Origin: Bacilli bacterium
GTDB lineage: Bacteria > Bacillota_I > Bacilli_A > ML615J-28 > CAG-698
NCBI GenBank assembly: GCA_918272565.1
Contig: CAKJYW010000002.1
Coordinates: 44,266-108,265, forward strand
Length of the DNA: 64,000 nt
Direction: 5' to 3'
The position numbers and the translations under genes are program-made. Below the pieces are notes generated by a model. The model saw nothing but the letters and a program-made list of their open reading frames with translations, was not told where the DNA came from and ran no database searches. How positions within the stretch are numbered: position 1 is the stretch's first letter; the number at the start of each line of letters is the position of its first letter. This document shows, in pieces, positions 2,715 to 52,289 of this stretch.

Positions 2715-3227
2715 TTACAAGCTTTTTGCAATTATTTCTTTAACTATTTCTTCTGGTGTTCTATTTACAGTATTAATGTGTGTTGCATTTAAATCATTGT
2801 TTTGTGCTTCAATACACATTTTAACATTTTTCATACACCAGGCTTCTTCACTTTCTCCTCTTTTTAGAATTCTATCATGAATAGTTTGATAGTCTCCATC
2901 CAAAAAGAAATAGCCAACTTTGATATTATCATCTTTTAATTTCTTAATAATATCATTATAAGATTCTTTTCTAACTAATGTCATTGGTACTACTATATCA
3001 CCATCATATTTGCTAGAAATATCTTTTAATAATTCATAATTATATTTTCTCCATAATTCATAATCTTCAAATATATAGCTGAATATTAATTCTTGTGGAT
3101 GATTATCCCTCACAGCGTTACCTACTGCCTCAGGATCAAATATATATGCTTTCTTTAATTTTTTAACTAAAGCTTCGGCTATAGTTGTTTTACCAACACC
3201 ATAACTTCCATTAATCCAATAAATCAT
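2715..3227 (-). CDS. tmrB: TmrB-like ATP-binding protein (tunicamycin-resistance / AAA_33 P-loop kinase family)
   Basis: N-terminus MIYWINGSYGVGKTT matches B. subtilis TmrB (MIIWINGAFGSGKT) and shows colinear similarity throughout. 170 aa. Confidence 0.6.
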   Translation of the reverse strand: MIYWINGSYGVGKTTIAEALVKKLKKAYIFDPEAVGNAVRDNHPQELIFSYIFEDYELWRKYNYELLKDISSKYDGDIVVPMTLVRKESYNDIIKKLKDDNIKVGYFFLDGDYQTIHDRILKRGESEEAWCMKNVKMCIEAQNNDLNATHINTVNRTPEEIVKEIIAKSL

Positions 3228-3300
3228 TTTTGTTCCTCATTTTATCTTATCATTTATCTTATCACTTTCTAATTTAATATGATAAGATATCTCATGTTAT

Positions 3301-4608
3301 CTATTTTATAAACCTCAATAAAAAGTCTGCTATTCCTATCACAGTAAAACCATTTAAATCTAATGACTCTTCTAGTGGCTTATTAATTACGATTATTTTT
3401 TGAATTGAATCTTTTAACGCAAAGAAAGGTTTAAGTTCCCTTGCTTTAGTTTCTGCATTTGAGATGTCGCTAGCAACTTGTATGTAGTATTTTTTTATTC
3501 CACGTTGTGCCACAAAATCAATTTCATATGTATTTCTAACACTTTCGCCATTTTTATTTTTTTCATATTTTTCAAATGTTCCTACATTAACAGTATAACC
3601 ATTGTAAAGCAATTCATTATATACCATATTTTCAAGCATTTGTCCTTCATCATCATAAGCAAAATTAAGTCTTGCGTTTCTCAAGCCATTATCAACAAAG
3701 AAATACTTTCTTAGAGCTCCAATTTCATTATTTCCTTTTACATCATAACGTGTTGCTTCTCTTAAAATAAATGCATCAATAAAATAATCAATATATTTTT
3801 TTACAGTGTCTTTATCTATGCTGTCTTTTGTCACGCTCTTATATGTATCAGCTATTTTTTGCGAATTAAAGAGTTGTCCTGTACCTTCACTTATAATATT
3901 ACATAGTGAATCAAGAGCTTCTGTTTTTTCTAATTTATTATGCTCTAAAATGTCTTTAAAATATGTTGTTTCAAATAATCCCTTTAAGTAATCTTTTTTA
4001 TCATTAATATCTTTTAATACTGCAAGAGGCATACCTCCATATCTCATATATTCAAATACAGTATCAGAAGATCTACTATTTTTATAATTTGAAAATTCTT
4101 CAAAAGAGAGTGGATATAAAGAAATATTTGTTGCTTTATCCCTAAATTCTGTAATTACATCAGATGATAACATCTTAGAGTTAGAGCCAGTAGCATATAA
4201 ATCAATATATTTTTCTCTAGATAAACCTAATACTACTTCTACAAAAGAAATAACATCTTTATCGTCTTCTTTAGCAATAACATATTCTCCATTTGTAAAA
4301 ATTGGATTAACAATTGTTGTTACTAGTTGTACCTCATCTATAAACACATAATTAATTGTATTAACATTACATTTATTCCTTATATATTTATCTAGTTCTA
4401 TTGGATTTCTATATTTTGCATTCTTTAAATCATCAAGCTCAACAATTATAATATTGTCTTCTGATACACCCTCACCTAGCAAATGCTTTTTAAATATTTC
4501 TTTTAACAAGTATGATTTTCCACATCTTCGTACACCTGTTATTATTTTTGGAAAACCGTTCCCTTTTGATGAAATCAATTTAGATAAATAAACATTTCTT
4601 TCAATCAT
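3301..4608 (-). CDS. AAA+ ATPase of the AAA_14/DUF4143 (COG1373) family
   Basis: Walker A GVRRCGKSYLLKE near the N-terminus; 435 aa, the typical length and architecture of archaeal-type COG1373 ATPases. Confidence 0.55.
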   Translation of the reverse strand: MIERNVYLSKLISSKGNGFPKIITGVRRCGKSYLLKEIFKKHLLGEGVSEDNIIIVELDDLKNAKYRNPIELDKYIRNKCNVNTINYVFIDEVQLVTTIVNPIFTNGEYVIAKEDDKDVISFVEVVLGLSREKYIDLYATGSNSKMLSSDVITEFRDKATNISLYPLSFEEFSNYKNSRSSDTVFEYMRYGGMPLAVLKDINDKKDYLKGLFETTYFKDILEHNKLEKTEALDSLCNIISEGTGQLFNSQKIADTYKSVTKDSIDKDTVKKYIDYFIDAFILREATRYDVKGNNEIGALRKYFFVDNGLRNARLNFAYDDEGQMLENMVYNELLYNGYTVNVGTFEKYEKNKNGESVRNTYEIDFVAQRGIKKYYIQVASDISNAETKARELKPFFALKDSIQKIIVINKPLEESLDLNGFTVIGIADFLLRFIK

Positions 4609-14389: not shown

Positions 14390-14787
14390 TTCTTCTGTTC
14401 CCTTACTGTTGGGCTAGCACTAAACACTAAAACAAGCGCTCCAACAAACGATAAAGTCTTAGCCACAATTAGATTTCTTAAAAACCAAATCGCTAAAATT
14501 GAACCAACTCCACCAAGGTATGCTAGTAATATCTTTATTAATAATAACTTCTTATTATACACACCTGATGTGATTTCTCTAACAAATGCTCCTGTTGGAA
14601 TGATCAAAAATAGTACGGCTATAATGATAATATATCGATAAATATATTTAGTGATTAGCAGTTCTTCATCTTCAATGTCTTTAACATTGATAAAGAATAC
14701 TGCTAAAACTAGTAACACAATACTAATGATCATTGAAGCATAATAGAAATATTTACCAAAATTTTGTTTCTTATCCAAGGTTCTCAA
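14386..14787 (-). CDS. Small integral membrane protein (4 predicted TM helices), function unknown
   Basis: Hydrophobic segments throughout. Its 3' end overlaps the radical SAM start and its 5' end overlaps the nifU-like gene by a few nt (translational coupling). Confidence 0.4.
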   Translation of the reverse strand: MRTLDKKQNFGKYFYYASMIISIVLLVLAVFFINVKDIEDEELLITKYIYRYIIIIAVLFLIIPTGAFVREITSGVYNKKLLLIKILLAYLGGVGSILAIWFLRNLIVAKTLSFVGALVLVFSASPTVREQKK

Positions 14788-15010
14788 CTCCTATAATTCC
14801 TGGAACTTCTTCTAATAATAGTGATTCGATTCCATCTTTTAATGTAACATCAATACTAGAACAACCAGCACAAGCGCCAAGCATTCTAACATAAACGATT
14901 CCGTTTTCGATTCTAACGAATTCAACATCACCACCATCTCTAACAAGATATGGTCTGATTTTATCAATTATCTTTTTACATAACTTTTCTTGTTCTTCTA
15001 AATTCATCAT
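14771..15010 (-). CDS. NifU/Nfu-type Fe-S cluster carrier domain protein
   Basis: MLGACAGCSSIDVTLKDGIE NifU C-terminal-domain CxxC motif; 79 aa. Confidence 0.7.
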   Translation of the reverse strand: MMNLEEQEKLCKKIIDKIRPYLVRDGGDVEFVRIENGIVYVRMLGACAGCSSIDVTLKDGIESLLLEEVPGIIGVENLG

Positions 15011-15081
15011 GATTTCTACCTCTTTTATCTTAGATATTATAATATAAACACTTTAAAAAGTCCATTAAATTGCTTTCGTTA

Positions 15082-16110
15082 TTACAATTGCTTTTTCACA
15101 AATTCAACAAATCTTGGAAGAATTATTCGACATTTCCCGTATTCAGTGCCTTCAATAATTCCTCTTTTAATTAATCTATCTCTATAAACAGAATATTCTT
15201 TAATTGTTAGATTAGTATTTGTCATAATGGTACTAGCATCTAACAGATCATCATTAAAGACTTTCAAAAACATCTTTTCTTTTTCAGGTAAACCACTCCA
15301 AATTTTAGCGTAAACATAGATAGACATATATTTATCAAATTCATCAATTAGATCTTCTATTTTTCCATATTTACTAAACAAGAAACCAGCAACCTGGTAA
15401 GCAAAAGCATAACCTTTAGTTAAGTTTGCTAGTGAAAATAGTTCTTCTTTTGAAGCATCACTAAAAATCTTTTGATATTCTATTTCAATTAAATTCAAAT
15501 CAAGGGGAACAAGTTCAATTTTAGGAGCACGATAAAGGAAAGTAAGATTTTTGTTATTTTGCAAAGAATTTACGTTTTCATATAATCCAGTCATTAGAGT
15601 AAAAACTGGATAATCATTCCTTAAAAACCCTTGAAAATCATGAGCGAAAGCTCTCATATATGAATTATTTGATGCTTCATCAATAGTAAACAAAACTCTT
15701 TTATCATTCTTCTTAACAACATCAAGCATTTTTTCAATAATTGTTTTTACATTAGATACAGGCTCTTTACCCTCAATTGAGATACCTAATCCATGAAAAG
15801 AAAACGAAAATGTCTTAGATAAAAATAGATACTTAGAATTTCTATTTTCATATAAGCCTGATGCTATTTGTTCTAATATATCCCTATCAGGATTAATGTC
15901 AATCAGTATCCACTTTTTATCTTTCTTAATATCGTTTGATATATCATTAAGCAAAACAGTTTTTCCAGATCCTCTTACTCCACATATAATGTATATATGT
16001 GATAAAGGATAATCTAATGTAAAATCATCGTACACTTGCTTTTTTAAAAAATCTCTATTGATATAACTTGTTGGGGAAAGACCAAAAGTAACTGAGAAAT
16101 TATTGTTCAT
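15082..16110 (-). CDS. AAA+ ATPase, archaeal-ATPase-like (Arch_ATPase/AAA_16-type) with probable C-terminal winged helix
   Basis: Walker A ICGVRGSGKTVLLND; Walker B-like VLFTIDEAS; 342 aa. Confidence 0.45.
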   Translation of the reverse strand: MNNNFSVTFGLSPTSYINRDFLKKQVYDDFTLDYPLSHIYIICGVRGSGKTVLLNDISNDIKKDKKWILIDINPDRDILEQIASGLYENRNSKYLFLSKTFSFSFHGLGISIEGKEPVSNVKTIIEKMLDVVKKNDKRVLFTIDEASNNSYMRAFAHDFQGFLRNDYPVFTLMTGLYENVNSLQNNKNLTFLYRAPKIELVPLDLNLIEIEYQKIFSDASKEELFSLANLTKGYAFAYQVAGFLFSKYGKIEDLIDEFDKYMSIYVYAKIWSGLPEKEKMFLKVFNDDLLDASTIMTNTNLTIKEYSVYRDRLIKRGIIEGTEYGKCRIILPRFVEFVKKQL

Positions 16111-16120
16111 ATGTGCCTCC

Positions 16121-16200
16121 TGTTAGACTTCATTTTTTGTTAGGTTTGTTAGGTCTGTTAGACTTCATTTTTTGTTAGGTCTGTTAGGTTTGTTAGACTT
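16121..16200. repeat. Tandem array of about eight 9-bp TGTTAG(G/A)(T/C)(T/C) units, including a duplicated 36-bp block
   Basis: tgttagacttcattttttgttaggtttgttaggtc repeated twice plus partial copies, directly upstream of the ATPase gene start (16110, minus strand). Confidence 0.5.
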
Positions 16201-16257
16201 TACAATAAAATTATATAGTACACAATAATATTTGTCAACAAAAAAAGTCATAATTTC

Positions 16258-17412
16258 TTATGACTTTCTTAGTAGAACTATAGCTTCAGCCACAACCGCC
16301 TTGCTTTCCCCAACATCTCCTACTTTTTCTCCTCTAGTTGCTTTAACATTAATTTTGTAACTAGGAACTTCAAGTAATTTAGAAATGTTATCTACCATAT
16401 CATGAATATAGGGACGCATCATTGGTCTTTCTATATATATAGTAGAATCTAGGTTAACAATGGTGTAGCCTGCTTTATCTAACATCTTTTTAGCATTTTT
16501 TAGAAAAATGCTAGATGAGGCATCTTTATATTTATCATCATTATCAGGAAAATGGGTTCCAATATCTCCCTTAGCTAGCGCTCCAATTATTGCTTCAGTT
16601 ATTGCATGAAGAAGTGCATCACCATCAGAGTGCGCAACAATCCTATATTCACAAGGAATCTTAACTCCACCTAAAGTTATTGCATCTCCACAATCTAAGC
16701 GATGTGTATCTTTTGATTGACCAACTAAATAGTCATTATTAAATCCAATCAAAGCATTAACTAATTCAAAATCATTCTCAGTTGTCACTTTAATGTTATT
16801 AGTCTCTGTTTGAATTAGTAAAGGATTGATATTGAAATAGAATTCTACAGCACTAACATCATCAGTAAATTCGATGTTTTCTTTTCTTGATCTAATTAAT
16901 GCTTTTAAAAGTAAATCAGTTTTTGATCCTTGAGGTGTCTTCATCGCCATTAAGTTGTGTCTTTCAACAACCCTATTTCTTGTTCCTGTTACTCTTCTAA
17001 CACTATCGTTTACTTTAGAAACTAAAGAAACTAAAGGATAATCCTTTAATCCATCTAAGACATTAGTGATGTCTTTTACAGATATTATAGGACGAGCACC
17101 ATCATGAACTAAAACATATTCACTAACCGCATTAACAAGACCATTATAGACGCTTTCGCTTCTAGCATTTCCCCCTTCAACAAACTCTATTCTTTTATCA
17201 CTAACTAAAGAATTAATGGTTTCAACCATTTTTTCTTTTTCTTCTTTTCTAACTACAACAATCAATTTTTGTAAATTATCAAAAGATAAGAACTTAACTA
17301 GTGAATAATAGAGCAGAGGTTTACCATTAACTTCGTATAAGACCTTATTATAGCCTAAACCGGCTCTAGTTGAAGAGCCGGCAGCAAGTACTATTGCATC
17401 AAATTCAATCAT
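16258..17412 (-). CDS. ispDF: Bifunctional 2-C-methyl-D-erythritol 4-phosphate cytidylyltransferase / 2-C-methyl-D-erythritol 2,4-cyclodiphosphate synthase (IspDF)
   Basis: N-terminal IspD motif AIVLAAGSSTRAG. C-terminal IspF segment HSDGDALLHAITEAIIGALAKGDIGTHFPDND. 384 aa, equal to the sum of both enzymes. Confidence 0.85.
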   Translation of the reverse strand: MIEFDAIVLAAGSSTRAGLGYNKVLYEVNGKPLLYYSLVKFLSFDNLQKLIVVVRKEEKEKMVETINSLVSDKRIEFVEGGNARSESVYNGLVNAVSEYVLVHDGARPIISVKDITNVLDGLKDYPLVSLVSKVNDSVRRVTGTRNRVVERHNLMAMKTPQGSKTDLLLKALIRSRKENIEFTDDVSAVEFYFNINPLLIQTETNNIKVTTENDFELVNALIGFNNDYLVGQSKDTHRLDCGDAITLGGVKIPCEYRIVAHSDGDALLHAITEAIIGALAKGDIGTHFPDNDDKYKDASSSIFLKNAKKMLDKAGYTIVNLDSTIYIERPMMRPYIHDMVDNISKLLEVPSYKINVKATRGEKVGDVGESKAVVAEAIVLLRKS

Positions 17413-17426
17413 AAATAAATCTTTTC

Positions 17427-18698
17427 TTATAGATTCTCTAAGAACTTATTACTTAAGTCAACTTTGCACTTTTCGAATTCAAGGTCGTTATTCTTTAGAG
17501 CATTTAAGTCATACTCAAAGTATCTACATTCTTTGTTTGTAGCGATGTATAAAGCTAAGCGACCAGCTTCAACATATTCTAATGAATTCTTTTCGCTAAC
17601 ACTTTCAGAATGAACAAATCCTAATACGTTAGTAACAAAGTACTTCTTTCCTTCGTAATCTGTTTCAAGTTCTAATAATTCAGAGTTCTTGCTCTTAACC
17701 ATGTGGATGTTATCACGATAAACATCAACATCAGTTGTTAAGATACAATATTCTCTACTACTAATCTTATAGATTGAATCGTTTTGTTTGAATAAATCTT
17801 TTTGAACACTTCTTAAGTAGTTTTCGATAACTGCATTTGCAGCTTCTTTACCTAAGTGTTTGATCAAGTTTTGGTTGTTAGTTACAAGAATTAAAGTCAT
17901 ACCAAATTCTTCACCAACAGAGATTAATCTTGATAATTCAAGTTCTAAGTCGTTACGATCGAAGATAGCTTCTGGATTAATTTGTTCTTTATGGAATGTA
18001 GCGATAACATCATCTTTTTCAAGATGTTTAACTTCTTCAAACCATATAATTCCGCTATTAGTTCTTAAACGATAACGATATTTAGCTTTAGCGCTTTTTT
18101 GTTTTAATAAGCCTTCATAAACATTGCTATCATCTTCAACAATAAAGTTCTTATATTCATCAACTGAAAGAGTTCTTGATTTAATATCGATTAACTCTCT
18201 CATTCCTTTTGTTAAGTGATATCCATTGATTCTTGCATCATAGAATCCTAGAGGTTCATCGATTGTATCTAAGTACTTATCAAATGCAAAAGTGAATTCA
18301 ACTTTTGGCGCAACTTCTGGAACTACTTCTTCCTCTGGTTGTTCTTCTTCACCTTCTGCTTCTTCTTTCTTAGATAGTCTTACAGCAAGAATAATCCAAT
18401 CAGCCACAAGCACTAAGAAATATAGGATTGTGGCAAAAAGAATCCAAGTTAAGTCTTGACGGCCTTCCCAATAGATAACATATCCTAGTAAACCTGCAAT
18501 AAAGTGAATTAATATCGCAAGTAGGGCTGATGCAAACATGAAGAATTCAAGGAAGAATATCTTCTTTTTCTTAGCAATCATCAAAACAAATAATAAAACG
18601 AACAAAACAGAAATTCCAATAACTAATAACAAATAGTTTTTGTTAATAAAGCTAATTATTGGGTTCAAAATGCTATTAATGTCAAAACTCAAAATCAT
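17427..18698 (-). CDS. Membrane protein (about 4 N-terminal TM helices, acidic linker) with a C-terminal degenerate GGDEF-like / nucleotide-cyclase-fold domain; sits in the CdaR position after cdaA
   Basis: The C-terminal segment TLILVTNNQNLIKHLGKEAANAVIENYLRSVQKDLFKQNDSIYKISSREYCILT aligns with the GGDEF pattern L.D.D.FK.IND..GH..GD..L...A..L......D...R.GGDEF..LL, but the GGDEF signature is replaced by SSREY. Confidence 0.3.
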   Translation of the reverse strand: MILSFDINSILNPIISFINKNYLLLVIGISVLFVLLFVLMIAKKKKIFFLEFFMFASALLAILIHFIAGLLGYVIYWEGRQDLTWILFATILYFLVLVADWIILAVRLSKKEEAEGEEEQPEEEVVPEVAPKVEFTFAFDKYLDTIDEPLGFYDARINGYHLTKGMRELIDIKSRTLSVDEYKNFIVEDDSNVYEGLLKQKSAKAKYRYRLRTNSGIIWFEEVKHLEKDDVIATFHKEQINPEAIFDRNDLELELSRLISVGEEFGMTLILVTNNQNLIKHLGKEAANAVIENYLRSVQKDLFKQNDSIYKISSREYCILTTDVDVYRDNIHMVKSKNSELLELETDYEGKKYFVTNVLGFVHSESVSEKNSLEYVEAGRLALYIATNKECRYFEYDLNALKNNDLEFEKCKVDLSNKFLENL

Positions 18699-28882: not shown

Positions 28883-30685
28883 CTATTCAATTATTTCAAA
28901 TATTTCTACTAAATTCATCACTTTAATATTAGGATAAGAAGTAGGTTCACTTTTAGCACTTTTTTCAAAATCGCTCTTGCTTCCACAGTACTCATTTCCT
29001 GCACTCTCATTACCAAATCTCTTACCGAATCCATTATTATAATTGAGGTATTCTTCAAAATCATTGTAATGATTATATGTATAGAATACTTTTCTTTGAT
29101 TAATCGATTTAATGCTTTTATCACTAATAAAGCAGAACCTTGCGGCACCACGATTGATTGTTGTGCCCGTGTTATACACTTTTTGTGTATATTTAGTTCC
29201 AGTAACCTTGTTTTCGTTTGTGTAACCACCTAATGTTCCAAAGTCAGTTTCAGTGTATTCATAGATACTAATCCCTGGCATCTCTGGTTCATATGGCCAT
29301 TTTGAGCTATCATACATCATAATATCTTGATTAACCCTACCATAAATACCAAAGTCAGCGATACAATCACTCTTGCCTTTTGATTTATCGTATTTGTTAT
29401 TAACTGGAGTCTCTCCAAATGCTAGGATGTATGCAGCAACTTCATTTAAAGAAGCATATGCTCCACCATACCAAATCATTTGGAAATTGCCTTCTAAATC
29501 ATTAGGTAAATATCCTAAATAGCCTCCATTATAATCAAGCACATAAAAGGCATGAGTTAAATAAATATATGTATCTTCATAAGTTACATCATATTTATTA
29601 GGGATGTGTCCTTGAGGAGTGATATCACCACTCATAAGACCATGAAGTGATCTAAAATAAGAGTCTATATAACTATCTGCTTCACTATAATTATTATAGA
29701 ATTCTTCTTTATCGATACCAGCATAAGGGTCTGTAGCACTACTAATATCATATGAAGTAAAGACACAATAAACATCATCACCATAGATATCTAAATCAAT
29801 TCCATAAGGATTATCAACATCATTAGAATAAATTATAATATCATTGCCTAATACTGAATATAAATATTCTTTATATGATAATTCATATTCATCATAACTA
29901 ATGAAATTATTAACTTTAGCTAATTCTATTTCATTATAGATGATAGAAACATATTTATTACTACTAACGCTAGTAATAAAACCAGTTATTTTTACTTCTT
30001 TATCTAAATAATTGTTTAATGATGATGCATCAATTGGATAAGCAACGCTTATTACGGCTTTAGCTCCATCAATTATCAAATTATAATATGAACCACTTTT
30101 AATTAATGTACCAGCTACACTTACATATTCAGCTTTGATTTCATCGACACTTAAATAATTATCTAAAGCAGCTTTATCAACTTCTTTTGGTTTACTAAAG
30201 TGGATGTCCCATGTTCCTTCTTTAGTATAGGTTGATGATTTATCAAATTGAATTGATTTACCATAACTTACAACATTACCAACAACACTTACTGTATCAC
30301 CAATAGCTAGATCAGTAGTCCAAGTGTTTCCTAAATAAACCAAAATGTTACCAGTTCCATCGCTAAGCAAGAAGCTTTCCTTATTCACCGCTAAAACAAC
30401 ACCTATAGTTTTAGCTTCACCTAACTTTAATTCACTTATCTTTGAATAGTCATCTTGAGGTTGCTCATCTTCCTTAGGGTCTTCTTCGCCTGGTTCTTCC
30501 TCTTGAGGCACTTGTTCCTCTTCAGGCACTTGTTCCTCTTGAGGTTCTTCCTCTATAGGATCATCTATTATTGGATCTTCTTCTTTAGGGGGATTTTGTT
30601 CGGTTTCTAAAAAGGAACAAGCACCTAATATCAAGCTAAAGAATAAAAGTAAAACCAATAATATCTTTTTATAATTAATCTTCAT
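28883..30685 (-). CDS. Surface lipoprotein with acidic EEQVPEEE repeat and an OB-fold-like module, function unknown
   Basis: Lipobox SLILGACSFLE. Low-complexity EEEPQEEQVPEEEQVPQEEEPGEEDPKEDEQ. LKLGEAKTIGVVLAVNKESFLLSDGTGNILVYL resembles tRNA_anti/YhcR-type OB folds. 600 aa. Confidence 0.45.
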   Translation of the reverse strand: MKINYKKILLVLLLFFSLILGACSFLETEQNPPKEEDPIIDDPIEEEPQEEQVPEEEQVPQEEEPGEEDPKEDEQPQDDYSKISELKLGEAKTIGVVLAVNKESFLLSDGTGNILVYLGNTWTTDLAIGDTVSVVGNVVSYGKSIQFDKSSTYTKEGTWDIHFSKPKEVDKAALDNYLSVDEIKAEYVSVAGTLIKSGSYYNLIIDGAKAVISVAYPIDASSLNNYLDKEVKITGFITSVSSNKYVSIIYNEIELAKVNNFISYDEYELSYKEYLYSVLGNDIIIYSNDVDNPYGIDLDIYGDDVYCVFTSYDISSATDPYAGIDKEEFYNNYSEADSYIDSYFRSLHGLMSGDITPQGHIPNKYDVTYEDTYIYLTHAFYVLDYNGGYLGYLPNDLEGNFQMIWYGGAYASLNEVAAYILAFGETPVNNKYDKSKGKSDCIADFGIYGRVNQDIMMYDSSKWPYEPEMPGISIYEYTETDFGTLGGYTNENKVTGTKYTQKVYNTGTTINRGAARFCFISDKSIKSINQRKVFYTYNHYNDFEEYLNYNNGFGKRFGNESAGNEYCGSKSDFEKSAKSEPTSYPNIKVMNLVEIFEIIE

Positions 30686-50006: not shown

Positions 50007-52289
50007 TTATCCCATTGCAGAATACTTAGTATTGAATGTATTAATATAAGTATCTTCTAGAGAATCCATTGTTTGTGAGTAGTCTGCACCTGTAACGATT
50101 GTAGTAATCTTAGCGCAAAGTGGAGATGTGGCAATTGAAGTATAGAAGTCATGAACTGCATCATAGAATACGTTAGAGTTAGTCCACCACATTGCAGCTT
50201 CAACTGATTCAGGATCATCAACCTTAGAGCTGATTGCATTACGTTTCAATGTTTCAGGGTCATATGATGGATCATCACTGTAGTATCTATTAGTTCTTAG
50301 ATACATATCAAGCATTGCCATATAGATATCATCGTAAGTAACGCCAGCAGGATGAACTTTGTCACGACCTTCAGCAAACATTAATACAGTAGTACCATAT
50401 TGAGCGATTTGTTGTTGTTCTTTAGTCATATCATCTGGACGAGGGAATGGAACATAACCAAAACGAGTATCTTCACCCCACATATCACTAGTCCATCTGT
50501 TATCACCTTTCATGAACCACCAAGCACCAGAAACCATAACGCAAGTCTTATCAAAGAATGCACCAGTAGTTTCCATCCATGTATCAAATGCTGTTCCGCT
50601 TCCTAGAGCGCCTTTAGCATATAATCTACTTAATAGCTCAGCAGCTGCAACTTCACGAGGATGTTTCAAAGTTACTTTAATAGCAGCAGGGTCAGCAATC
50701 TTAATACCAGCAGCATTAGTTAATCCAACCCAGTGATAATAGTAACGTCCACCAATTGCATATTCGCCTGCACCTAATAATGCTTGAACATTAGTTGCCC
50801 ATTTTTCAAATTCACTATAAGTCCAGTTGCCTTCATTGAAGATCTTAGCAGGTGATTCAACTTTTAGTTTTTCAACCCATGCAAGGTTGTAATATAAACC
50901 TAAGTCAACATAGTTTTGAGCTTCGTTTGTACCAGTTGATAATCCATATAAGCCACCACGGTTAGTAGCTGCTTGTTTTTGAACAACGTCCATTTGGTTC
51001 TTACCATATCTAGCATAAACTAATCTTGCATCATGTGCACTATTAACACTAGCGAAGTCAGCTAACCAGCTTGATGAAATAGTTAAGAAGTCAGCTTTTG
51101 CATCGCCTAGTTGAGCTTGTGCATTGATCCAGTCAATACGAGAAGTTCCCCAAGGAGCTTCATCTGGATATGCTTCTACACTGATTGTACAGTTATAAGT
51201 AGATTCGATTTCTCTCCAAGCTTGTTGTTTGAACATCTTGTCGCTTCCAGAATATGCATCTAGGAATGGGTCTAAGTCAGCAAGTGCACTATCAGCGTTC
51301 ATTAAAATAATCTTATAGTGTTGTAAGTCAGGATATGCTTCAGGAGCAGTTGAAGGAGTAACTTTAATCTTAACACGGCTACTCTTAATAGAAGGGTCTA
51401 CCTTAGAGTAAGCGATGATGTATGTAGTACCTTCAGAAACACCTAAAATCTTACCATTTTCGTCGATTGTAGCAACTTCAGGTTTAGTTGATTCCCAAGT
51501 AACGTTTTGACTAGCACCTTGAGGTTCAACTGTTGCTCTTGCAGTTAGTTTGTAACCAACTTCAACTTCATCAGCAGTAACACTTACTGTGATAGCAGTA
51601 GGAGCTTCAGTTACAGGACCAGTTTCATCATTCTTAATAACTGTTACTTCAAATGTTGCTTTAACATTTGTATCAGCAGTTGATGTAGCAGTAATAGTAA
51701 CTTTACCTTCAGCAACGCCAAGTACGCTACCCTTAGTTACAGTTGCAATACTAGGATCACTACTTTCCCAAGTAACGCCTTTTGTAGCTTCTTCTGGAGT
51801 GTAGCTAACAGTCAAAAGGATAACTTTGTTAACTTTAACTTCAGTTTCACCACTGATTTCAATAGCAGTAGGAAGGATTACTTCTGGTTCAGGAGGAGTA
51901 ACTTCACCACCAGCTTTAACAGTTACAGTGAATTCAGCTTTAACGTTCTTATCAGCTTCAGCAGTTACTGTAATTGTAGCTGTACCAGCACTGATACCAG
52001 TTACTTTACCATCTTTAACAGTTGCGATTGCACTGCTACTAGATGAATATCTAACTTTCTTATTTGTAGCATTGTCAGGTGTAACTTTTACTGTAACAGT
52101 AAATTCTTCACCAATTTCAATTTCTTCTTTTTGTCCACTAATTTCAATCTTAGTAGGCTTTACATCTTCTACTACTGGAGTGTCATCTGGTTTTGGAGGG
52201 TCATCTGGTTTTTCTGTTTCTCCACCACCACATCCAATTAGTACTAGTGCAAATACCAATACTAGAATGAAAGAAAACCATTTTTTCAT
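50007..52289 (-). CDS. Paralogous surface lipoprotein 2 (Big_2 x3 + SBP_bac_1-like)
   Basis: Same architecture as paralog 1; closest to paralog 1 across the C-terminal domain. Confidence 0.55.
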   Translation of the reverse strand: MKKWFSFILVLVFALVLIGCGGGETEKPDDPPKPDDTPVVEDVKPTKIEISGQKEEIEIGEEFTVTVKVTPDNATNKKVRYSSSSSAIATVKDGKVTGISAGTATITVTAEADKNVKAEFTVTVKAGGEVTPPEPEVILPTAIEISGETEVKVNKVILLTVSYTPEEATKGVTWESSDPSIATVTKGSVLGVAEGKVTITATSTADTNVKATFEVTVIKNDETGPVTEAPTAITVSVTADEVEVGYKLTARATVEPQGASQNVTWESTKPEVATIDENGKILGVSEGTTYIIAYSKVDPSIKSSRVKIKVTPSTAPEAYPDLQHYKIILMNADSALADLDPFLDAYSGSDKMFKQQAWREIESTYNCTISVEAYPDEAPWGTSRIDWINAQAQLGDAKADFLTISSSWLADFASVNSAHDARLVYARYGKNQMDVVQKQAATNRGGLYGLSTGTNEAQNYVDLGLYYNLAWVEKLKVESPAKIFNEGNWTYSEFEKWATNVQALLGAGEYAIGGRYYYHWVGLTNAAGIKIADPAAIKVTLKHPREVAAAELLSRLYAKGALGSGTAFDTWMETTGAFFDKTCVMVSGAWWFMKGDNRWTSDMWGEDTRFGYVPFPRPDDMTKEQQQIAQYGTTVLMFAEGRDKVHPAGVTYDDIYMAMLDMYLRTNRYYSDDPSYDPETLKRNAISSKVDDPESVEAAMWWTNSNVFYDAVHDFYTSIATSPLCAKITTIVTGADYSQTMDSLEDTYINTFNTKYSAMG

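Follow-up and report, generated by a model that had tools for sequence, protein, structure and literature searches.

The gene for a 342-aa P-loop NTPase at 15082-16110 (- strand) of the 64-kb stretch of DNA analysed here, hereafter the window, is preceded by a compact array of 9-bp boxes, all in the same orientation, that fills the interval between its promoter and its ribosome-binding site. Such a module of gene and array, with a repeat word specific to the lineage, is found again and again in hundreds of gut and soil bacteria. Comparison of these loci makes it probable that the encoded ATPase uses the array in front of its own gene as a DNA operator: the protein would bind the boxes head-to-tail in an ATP-dependent manner and regulate its own synthesis negatively. 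The module appears to be undescribed, and the full-text literature, which was incompletely covered, yielded no description of it under PF01637, Arch_ATPase, DUF234, PABY2304 or STAND combined with direct repeats.

Seven exact copies of the hexamer TGTTAG, which is CTAACA when read along the gene, lie between 16121 and 16196, all on the same strand, with forward-strand (+) starts at 16121, 16138, 16147, 16156, 16173, 16182 and 16191. Read along the gene (- strand), the CTAACA cores lie at 16196-16191, 16187-16182, 16178-16173, 16161-16156, 16152-16147, 16143-16138 and 16126-16121. Start-to-start spacings of 9, 9, 17, 9, 9 and 17 give a 3+3+1 layout, and the proposed operator (16120-16200, - strand) reads AAGTCTAACA RACCTAACA RACCTAACA AAAAATG twice and then AAGTCTAACA. 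Tandem Repeats Finder described 16120-16200 as 2.3 copies of a period of 35 with 95% matches, at a score of 148 that is the highest of any tandem repeat in the window; the two full 35-nt blocks differ at one base (97% identical). An earlier note on this DNA, made from the letters alone, had reported about eight 9-bp units and a duplicated 36-bp block at 16111-16257. The exact box matches and Tandem Repeats Finder bear out the array, the 9-bp boxes and the duplicated block, whereas the exact boxes number seven, the block is 35 nt long, and 16111-16257 is the whole intergenic region, which beyond the array proper holds the GGAGG, the promoter and a hairpin. The same note had suggested looking for the motif elsewhere. 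In the 64-kb window the two-box pattern CTAACARACCTAACA has four exact matches on both strands, every one within the array, and nothing outside comes closer than two mismatches. Its gene call of 342 aa at 15082-16110 is correct, and the winged helix that it thought probable is present at the C-terminus of the predicted structure described below.

The window has a G+C content of about 31%, and within the stretch from 12 to 20 kb, which was looked at for this purpose, every long ORF is on the - strand. The names attached to homologs suggest an uncultured gut or rumen lineage of Bacilli or of Erysipelotrichaceae-like bacteria. Two 18-nt tandem repeats were also seen, at 30494-30554 (TTCCTCTTGAGGCACTTG x2.7, 93% identity) and at 52176-52212 (TGGAGGGTCATCTGGTTT x2.1); their period is divisible by three and they are possibly coding repeats.

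Along the gene strand the elements follow one another as hairpin with T-run, promoter, 9 nt, seven boxes, GGAGG, 5 nt and ATG. The promoter is of the sigma-70 type (16210-16238, - strand; TTGACA at 16238-16233, a 17-nt spacer, TATAAT at 16215-16210), agrees with the consensus at 12 of 12 positions, is the best site within 14500-17600 and is identical in four conspecific assemblies. The first box begins 9 nt past the -10 box, all seven boxes lie downstream of it, and the Shine-Dalgarno sequence GGAGG (16116-16120, - strand) adjoins the final repeat unit, so that the array is located exactly between the TTGACA-17-TATAAT promoter and the GGAGG. The arrangement expected of an operator, repeated sites that overlap or directly follow the promoter of the gene itself, is therefore what we found. 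The upstream gene, identified as ispDF by Pfam and NCBIfam, ends in a terminator at about 16239-16266 (- strand), a hairpin AAGTCATAA-GAAA-TTATGACTT followed by TTTTTTG, which was reported as an inverted repeat and has the ispDF stop codon inside it. The consensus terminator scan, which needs at least three G-C pairs, missed this hairpin because its stem is A+T-rich. The hairpin and T-run insulate the ATPase promoter from read-through.

The encoded protein is predicted to combine a P-loop NTPase, a helical domain and a C-terminal winged helix in an archaeal-ATPase or STAND-like fold. An AlphaFold2 model built on 28 homologs has a pLDDT of 84.9 and a pTM of 0.81. The Walker A motif GVRGSGKT (residues 44-51; 15958-15981, - strand) retains G44, G47, G49, K50 and T51 without exception in the 28 homologs, and in the Walker B region LFTIDE (residues 140-145; 15676-15693, - strand) L140 and D144 never vary, while conservation of E145 reaches at least 90%. 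By the secondary structure of the model, the winged helix-turn-helix takes up residues 276-342 (15085-15285, - strand), with helices at 276-283, 292-299 and 303-315 and strands at 289-291, 319-322 and 326-329; residues 303-315 (IKEYSVYRDRLIK; 15166-15204, - strand) form the predicted recognition helix. Residues 273-341 give weak matches to the BlaI and Fic winged-helix domains, and the winged helix is the sole nucleic-acid-binding module predicted in the protein. Against the Pfam profile PF01637 the protein scores 28.2 bits, below the gathering cut-off of 33.2, with generic P-loop matches besides; most homologs carry a precomputed PF01637 match. The window protein has both the GxxGxGK[ST] Walker A and the hhhhDE Walker B of the PF01637-type core as well as the three-domain fold of that type, namely NTPase, helical domain and C-terminal winged helix. 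NCBIfam gave nothing above noise for the protein, and PADLOC gave weak matches only, confined to the N-terminal ATPase region (residues ~24-114). The 342 aa end in the winged helix and contain no C-terminal sensor or repeat domain and no LuxR-type HTH, the features of MalT/LAL-type proteins.

More than 2249 homologs are detectable, and the more than 550 species-representative genomes that encode them are chiefly Bacilli (RF39- or Erysipelotrichales-like MAGs) and Lachnospiraceae. The homologs lie overwhelmingly on chromosomal contigs; they occur on 13 of 72,556 plasmids and in none of 50,697 phages. A non-trivial 7-mer is present at least four times in the upstream 220 nt at 63 of 76 homolog loci, compared with 10 of 2510 control windows drawn from the same loci, and at nearly all of the 80 loci that were fetched, direct repeats of 9-10 nt stand in tandem immediately 5' of the ribosome-binding site. 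Repeat words differ between lineages and include CTAACAAAC, AATAACAAA, GTATAAA, GTTATATAA, GTTATAAAA, GATATAAAA, AGTAAAGAA, GTTCTAAAG, GTATGAMA and TGATAAAG. At most homolog loci the last unit runs directly into GGAG, as it does in the window. The link between gene and array extends to homologs of about 25% identity in Actinobacteria, and upstream arrays also accompany plasmid-borne distant homologs (23-34% identity). Among distant homologs, that of Pseudobutyrivibrio has ATACTAAAG x7 upstream, that of Lactobacillus crispatus about six AGTAAAATG-type units, those of two Arthrobacter plasmids GACTCACARG x4, and those of Collinsella and Bifidobacterium looser 10-nt periodic units. A clear array is missing at one closer homolog (locus L012) and at two distant ones (L177 and L178). 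Locus L012 (3800-4001) is the only close homolog, at 60% identity, without an upstream array, and in its recognition helix a tyrosine replaces the near-invariant S307; the same MAG carries a second paralog (L071) with one TTCTAAA-type unit pair upstream.

The spacing of the units follows a common grammar. In lineages with 10-nt units it runs 10, 19, 10, 19, 10, and in the CTAAC clade 9, 17, 9 or 9, 9, 17, 9, 9, 17; the units therefore form blocks of two to four, about one helical turn apart, and the spacer between blocks is one base shorter than the unit. Arrays hold from three to nine units depending on lineage. The 3+3+1 layout of the window is also found at locus L007, whose protein is 57% identical to that of the window, and the nearest relatives (72-73% identity) have a 2+2 layout. 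Four conspecific assemblies from independent samples (for example GCA_963426235.1, contig CAUJZM010000022.1) are 98.0-98.6% identical over 4 kb and carry the same 3+3+1 array, differing in homopolymer lengths only. The flanking positions of these strains differ by 1.4-2% and the array copy number is unchanged, which indicates that the tract is stable and does not resemble a contingency locus.

The repeat word changes together with the part of the protein that would read it. In the recognition helix, S307, Y309, R310, R312 and L313 are invariant or nearly so among the 28 homologs, and positions 304, 305 and 308 vary with the repeat word, the first turn of the helix differing by box class. Within a Lachnospiraceae subclade, counts that take in 80 further metagenomic loci place leucine at 305 with TTATATAA-containing arrays in 73 of 74 cases, and glutamine, lysine, valine or another residue with pure TTATAAAA arrays in 20 of 21. 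The L and non-L states are interleaved in a neighbour-joining tree made from residues 1-275 only, with the winged helix left out and without bootstrap support, and all six phylogenetically independent L/non-L pairs differ as predicted (one-sided sign test, 1/64). Glutamine at position 308 accompanies GTATGA in two lineages sharing no more than 51% identity with each other, one of which is 74% identical to a lineage with P308 and GTATAAC; P308 accompanies GTATAA, AGTAAA and TGATAAA. From helix geometry, residues 305, 308 and the invariant R312 would share one face of the helix (i, i+3, i+7). When box class was compared with protein segments by partial correlation in a sliding window, the recognition helix came near the top and was not singled out (partial r of 0.21 at 298-310, 0.23 at 85-97 and 0.21 at 172-184), and the case for co-variation therefore rests on the specific positions and on the unbootstrapped tree.

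The position of the units relative to the promoter bears on whether they act as DNA or as RNA. At 71 of the 81 loci with a strong promoter-like site, the spacer between -35 and -10 contains one or two units, and at 10 loci there are units upstream of -35, although predicting promoters in A+T-rich arrays is partly circular, given that the units themselves resemble -10 boxes. In those 71 loci a TTGACA-like -35 directly precedes the first unit pair and the end of the second unit is the -10. The alternative that survives best, though we regard it as improbable, is an RNA-level element in the 5' leader, either a set of sites at which the ATPase or another protein would occlude the adjacent Shine-Dalgarno sequence in the manner of TRAP on the trp leader or an unstructured A/C-rich translation enhancer. 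Such an element would suit the window, where all repeats fall within the transcript and the last adjoins the GGAGG, and an RNA-level effect may exist there; it would also suit the family-wide junction of last unit and GGAG, the A-rich units that are always on the sense strand, and a leader that folds without excess structure (z-score +0.7). In most relatives, however, the predicted promoters place units inside or upstream of the core promoter, that is, in the untranscribed -35/-10 spacer or beyond it, and a first repeat pair within the core promoter favours a DNA operator over an RNA element. The 10-bp pitch fits the helical repeat of DNA, the predicted module is a winged helix, which is typical of double-stranded DNA binders, Rfam gave no match to the leader with an E-value below 5, and an enhancer would leave the joint change of word and recognition helix unexplained. 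Taken together, the promoter placement, the pitch of about 10 bp, the winged helix and a leader with neither RNA structure nor an Rfam match favour an operator in duplex DNA.

A known RNA family or structured leader was rejected on the same Rfam and folding results. A leader peptide was rejected as well. The two mini-ORFs, MKSNRPNKPNKK and MKSNRRHI (each ending in a stop codon), lie at 16131-16170 and 16108-16133, comprise 12 and 8 codons and start from ATGs in the A-rich spacers, and the stop of MKSNRRHI overlaps the main start (ATATGA). Relatives do not conserve the spacer ATG, which is ATA in L002-L006 and lies in a different frame in L088, and no Shine-Dalgarno sequence lies ahead of it.

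The surroundings of the gene argue against a role in replication or segregation, the second reading that the earlier note had offered. According to this reading the array would be an origin-, iteron- or centromere-like site, and the ATPase either an initiator of the Orc1/Cdc6 kind or a protein of segregation. Genes for initiators and for partition usually adjoin their repeat arrays, and some of the homologs are plasmid-borne. In plasmid R1 the arrays of parC flank the promoter, and a flanking arrangement of this kind is seen at loci L015 and L026. Arch_ATPase/Cdc6-like proteins beside predicted origins have been reported in Methanococcales (PMC4009838). Nevertheless, we consider this reading very unlikely. 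GC skew is negative and monotonic over the 64 kb, with no switch at 16 kb, and a chromosomal origin or terminus was rejected on this ground. The gene sits in a chromosomal housekeeping context between ispDF and nifU, an order kept in the four conspecific assemblies, and the rarity of homologs on plasmids and their absence from phages speak against the initiator of an autonomous replicon. Among 80 loci there is no conserved neighbouring gene and no conserved partition partner or cytomotive NTPase partner; the largest cluster of neighbours, made up of generic ABC ATPases, is found at 10 of the 80 loci, and its position varies. Walker A has the classical GxxGxGKT form, not the deviant ParA type, and the array measures only about 80 bp and is confined between promoter and ribosome-binding site. 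An association with phages or defence was likewise rejected, given that there are no phage homologs, only weak PADLOC matches and no conserved neighbour.

At 17 of 80 genome loci a same-strand ORF of at least 80 aa starts no more than 60 nt downstream of the homolog. On the 82.7-kb plasmid pNP95 (L081:3001-6652), co-directional glycosyltransferase genes within a polysaccharide cluster begin 23 nt after the homolog, and because of this close co-directional arrangement the array may control an operon there.

The sites are almost exclusive to the gene. Core pairs specific to each locus and at unit spacing number 189 in the upstream 260 nt and 3 in 1.09 Mb of flanks (both strands). Plasmid pNP95 has no further pairs beyond those upstream of its homolog, and the 231.5-kb plasmid p232 has pairs solely upstream of its two paralogs. 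The latter (L181 and L182, at 108942-110024 and 178199-179287 of the Arthrobacter plasmid, NC_018532.1) are both preceded by the same GACTCACA x4 array. A search for a regulon in the 64-kb window, about 1 Mb of flanks and the two plasmids found no extra sites save a stray CTAACAAACCTAACA pair at about 3316 of L015, some 680 nt upstream of the ATPase gene and outside its main arrays, which is the only convincing extra site in the 1.09 Mb of flanks.

These data also make it most doubtful that some unlinked regulator other than the ATPase, or a global factor of the host, uses the array as its operator. Arrays upstream of other genes do exist, such as that of ATTCGGAAA in L032, yet the word at the ATPase gene changes by lineage and stays with the gene in unrelated contexts, it tracks residues of the recognition helix of the ATPase itself, and the pairs are not found at other genes in the window, the flanks or the two plasmids. 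The array in L032 (2421-2640) is a different one, with ATTCGGAAA x4 in direct orientation and then TTTCCGAAA x3 in the opposite orientation, upstream of a SpoVAD-like ORF (2736-3794). The ATPase gene is about 1.4 kb away, and a regulator other than the ATPase probably uses this array as its operator. Finally, a functionless product of slippage or duplication, or a phase-variable contingency tract, might be read from the near-identical 35-nt blocks, which look recently duplicated, and from the unit number that varies between lineages, but is scarcely credible for an array whose spacing grammar is conserved across phyla, whose copy number is identical in four strains with diverged flanks and whose 3+3+1 layout is shared with L007.

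The reading of the array as the operator of its own gene can be set out as a mechanism. Transcription would start from the consensus promoter at 16238-16210, and the seven same-orientation 9-bp boxes (3+3+1) would span the transcript from about +8 to the ribosome-binding site. Each winged helix would read a single box with the beginning of its recognition helix (303-315), and the NTPase domains would associate head-to-tail in a cooperative and probably nucleotide-dependent assembly. Head-to-tail contact is the normal geometry of AAA+/STAND oligomers, and an assembly of this kind would explain why the boxes all point one way instead of being inverted, why they follow at intervals of about one helical turn, and why they are gathered into blocks. 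The occupied array would then block RNA polymerase, in the window as a roadblock just past the transcription start and in most relatives by promoter occlusion, because there the first pair sits between -35 and -10. The outcome would be negative autoregulation, probably tuned by ATP/ADP or by some signal. Repression is predicted from site position only, and we infer physical binding, repression rather than activation, the part played by ATP and any role beyond self-control from sequence. The earlier note had proposed autoregulation by the ATPase at iterated sites, and comparative evidence now supports this strongly at the level of prediction, through the family-wide array, the gene-exclusive sites, the co-variation of word and recognition helix, and the overlap or abutment with the gene's own promoter.

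A more far-reaching version of this proposal, which we put forward as speculation, is that gene and array form a self-contained, horizontally mobile module present in over 500 species-level genomes, that the array serves as the platform for an ATP-dependent filament of a minimal NLR/ORC-like NTPase, and that the rapid re-coding of box and helix keeps co-resident copies orthogonal. If true, the module would represent a class of STAND switch, minimal and bacterial, that is new, perhaps a sensor that is bistable or related to conflict. It would have a one-residue-to-one-base code readable from sequence and could provide a first functional handle on the PF01637 superfamily.

In kind, the array resembles the box arrays of DnaA, ORC and MalT and the operators of ParR- and omega-type proteins. 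It departs from them in the family to which the protein belongs, in a minimal architecture of one gene, and in the way box and helix are re-coded from lineage to lineage. DnaA also binds same-orientation boxes, at oriC and at its autoregulated dnaA promoter; however, the ATPase described here belongs to a different clade, its nearest relatives being 2QEN, 2FNA and NB-ARC, it has a winged helix where DnaA uses domain IV, it lacks an origin context, and its box is hypervariable from one lineage to the next, unlike the nearly universal DnaA box. The origin recognition boxes that archaeal Orc1/Cdc6 proteins have beside their own genes are longer, are usually inverted around an unwinding element and mark origins, in contrast to the short direct repeats that fill a promoter-to-RBS interval at a chromosomal bacterial gene with no skew switch. 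The MalT/STAND factors (LAL, AfsR/SARP-STAND) differ from this minimal 342-aa protein, which lacks a sensor or repeat domain and carries a winged helix in place of a LuxR or SARP domain; its boxes are placed at its own promoter as repressor sites would be, and the window, the flanks and plasmid p232 show no sign of a regulon.

The closest structural matches are PABY2304 (2QEN) and SSO1545 (2FNA), both with the same three-domain layout as the window protein. Between 293 and 299 of the 342 residues are aligned (299 for 2QEN), at a sequence identity to the window protein of only 13-14%, and the structure-match output records no function or DNA target for either.

With respect to the arrays themselves, there is a likeness to ParR-parC of R1, TubR-tubC and the omega heptads of pSM19035, in which direct repeats of 7-12 bp overlap or flank the promoter of the operon encoding the binder, and binding is cooperative and autoregulatory. 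There, a small adaptor does the binding and the cytomotive NTPase is a separate protein, whereas here the proposed binder carries the NTPase itself, has no partner gene and is mostly chromosomal. Short tandem direct repeats in intergenic DNA are also known from Beggiatoaceae and cyanobacteria, where the TAACTGA repeats comprise a single word at 169 sites in one genome and a post-transcriptional role was proposed (PMC4679880). They differ from the arrays described here, each of which is private to one gene and has a word that co-varies with the product of that gene.

PF01637-type proteins are abundant in archaea and in many bacteria, and searchable sources assign them no DNA target or function. 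In this family the gene is strictly linked, across phyla, with a private direct-repeat array, and the binding hypothesis that follows from it is concrete and cheap to test on about 130 bp of DNA. For genome annotation, the array reliably marks the true start and the promoter of the gene. The pairing of L305 or Q305 with a T or A base, and of P308 or Q308 with an A or G base, may offer a natural specificity code for reprogramming. If the proposed mechanism holds, this small protein and its array would serve as a minimal model for the coupling of NTPase oligomerisation to the reading of tandem sites, as in DnaA, ORC and MalT.
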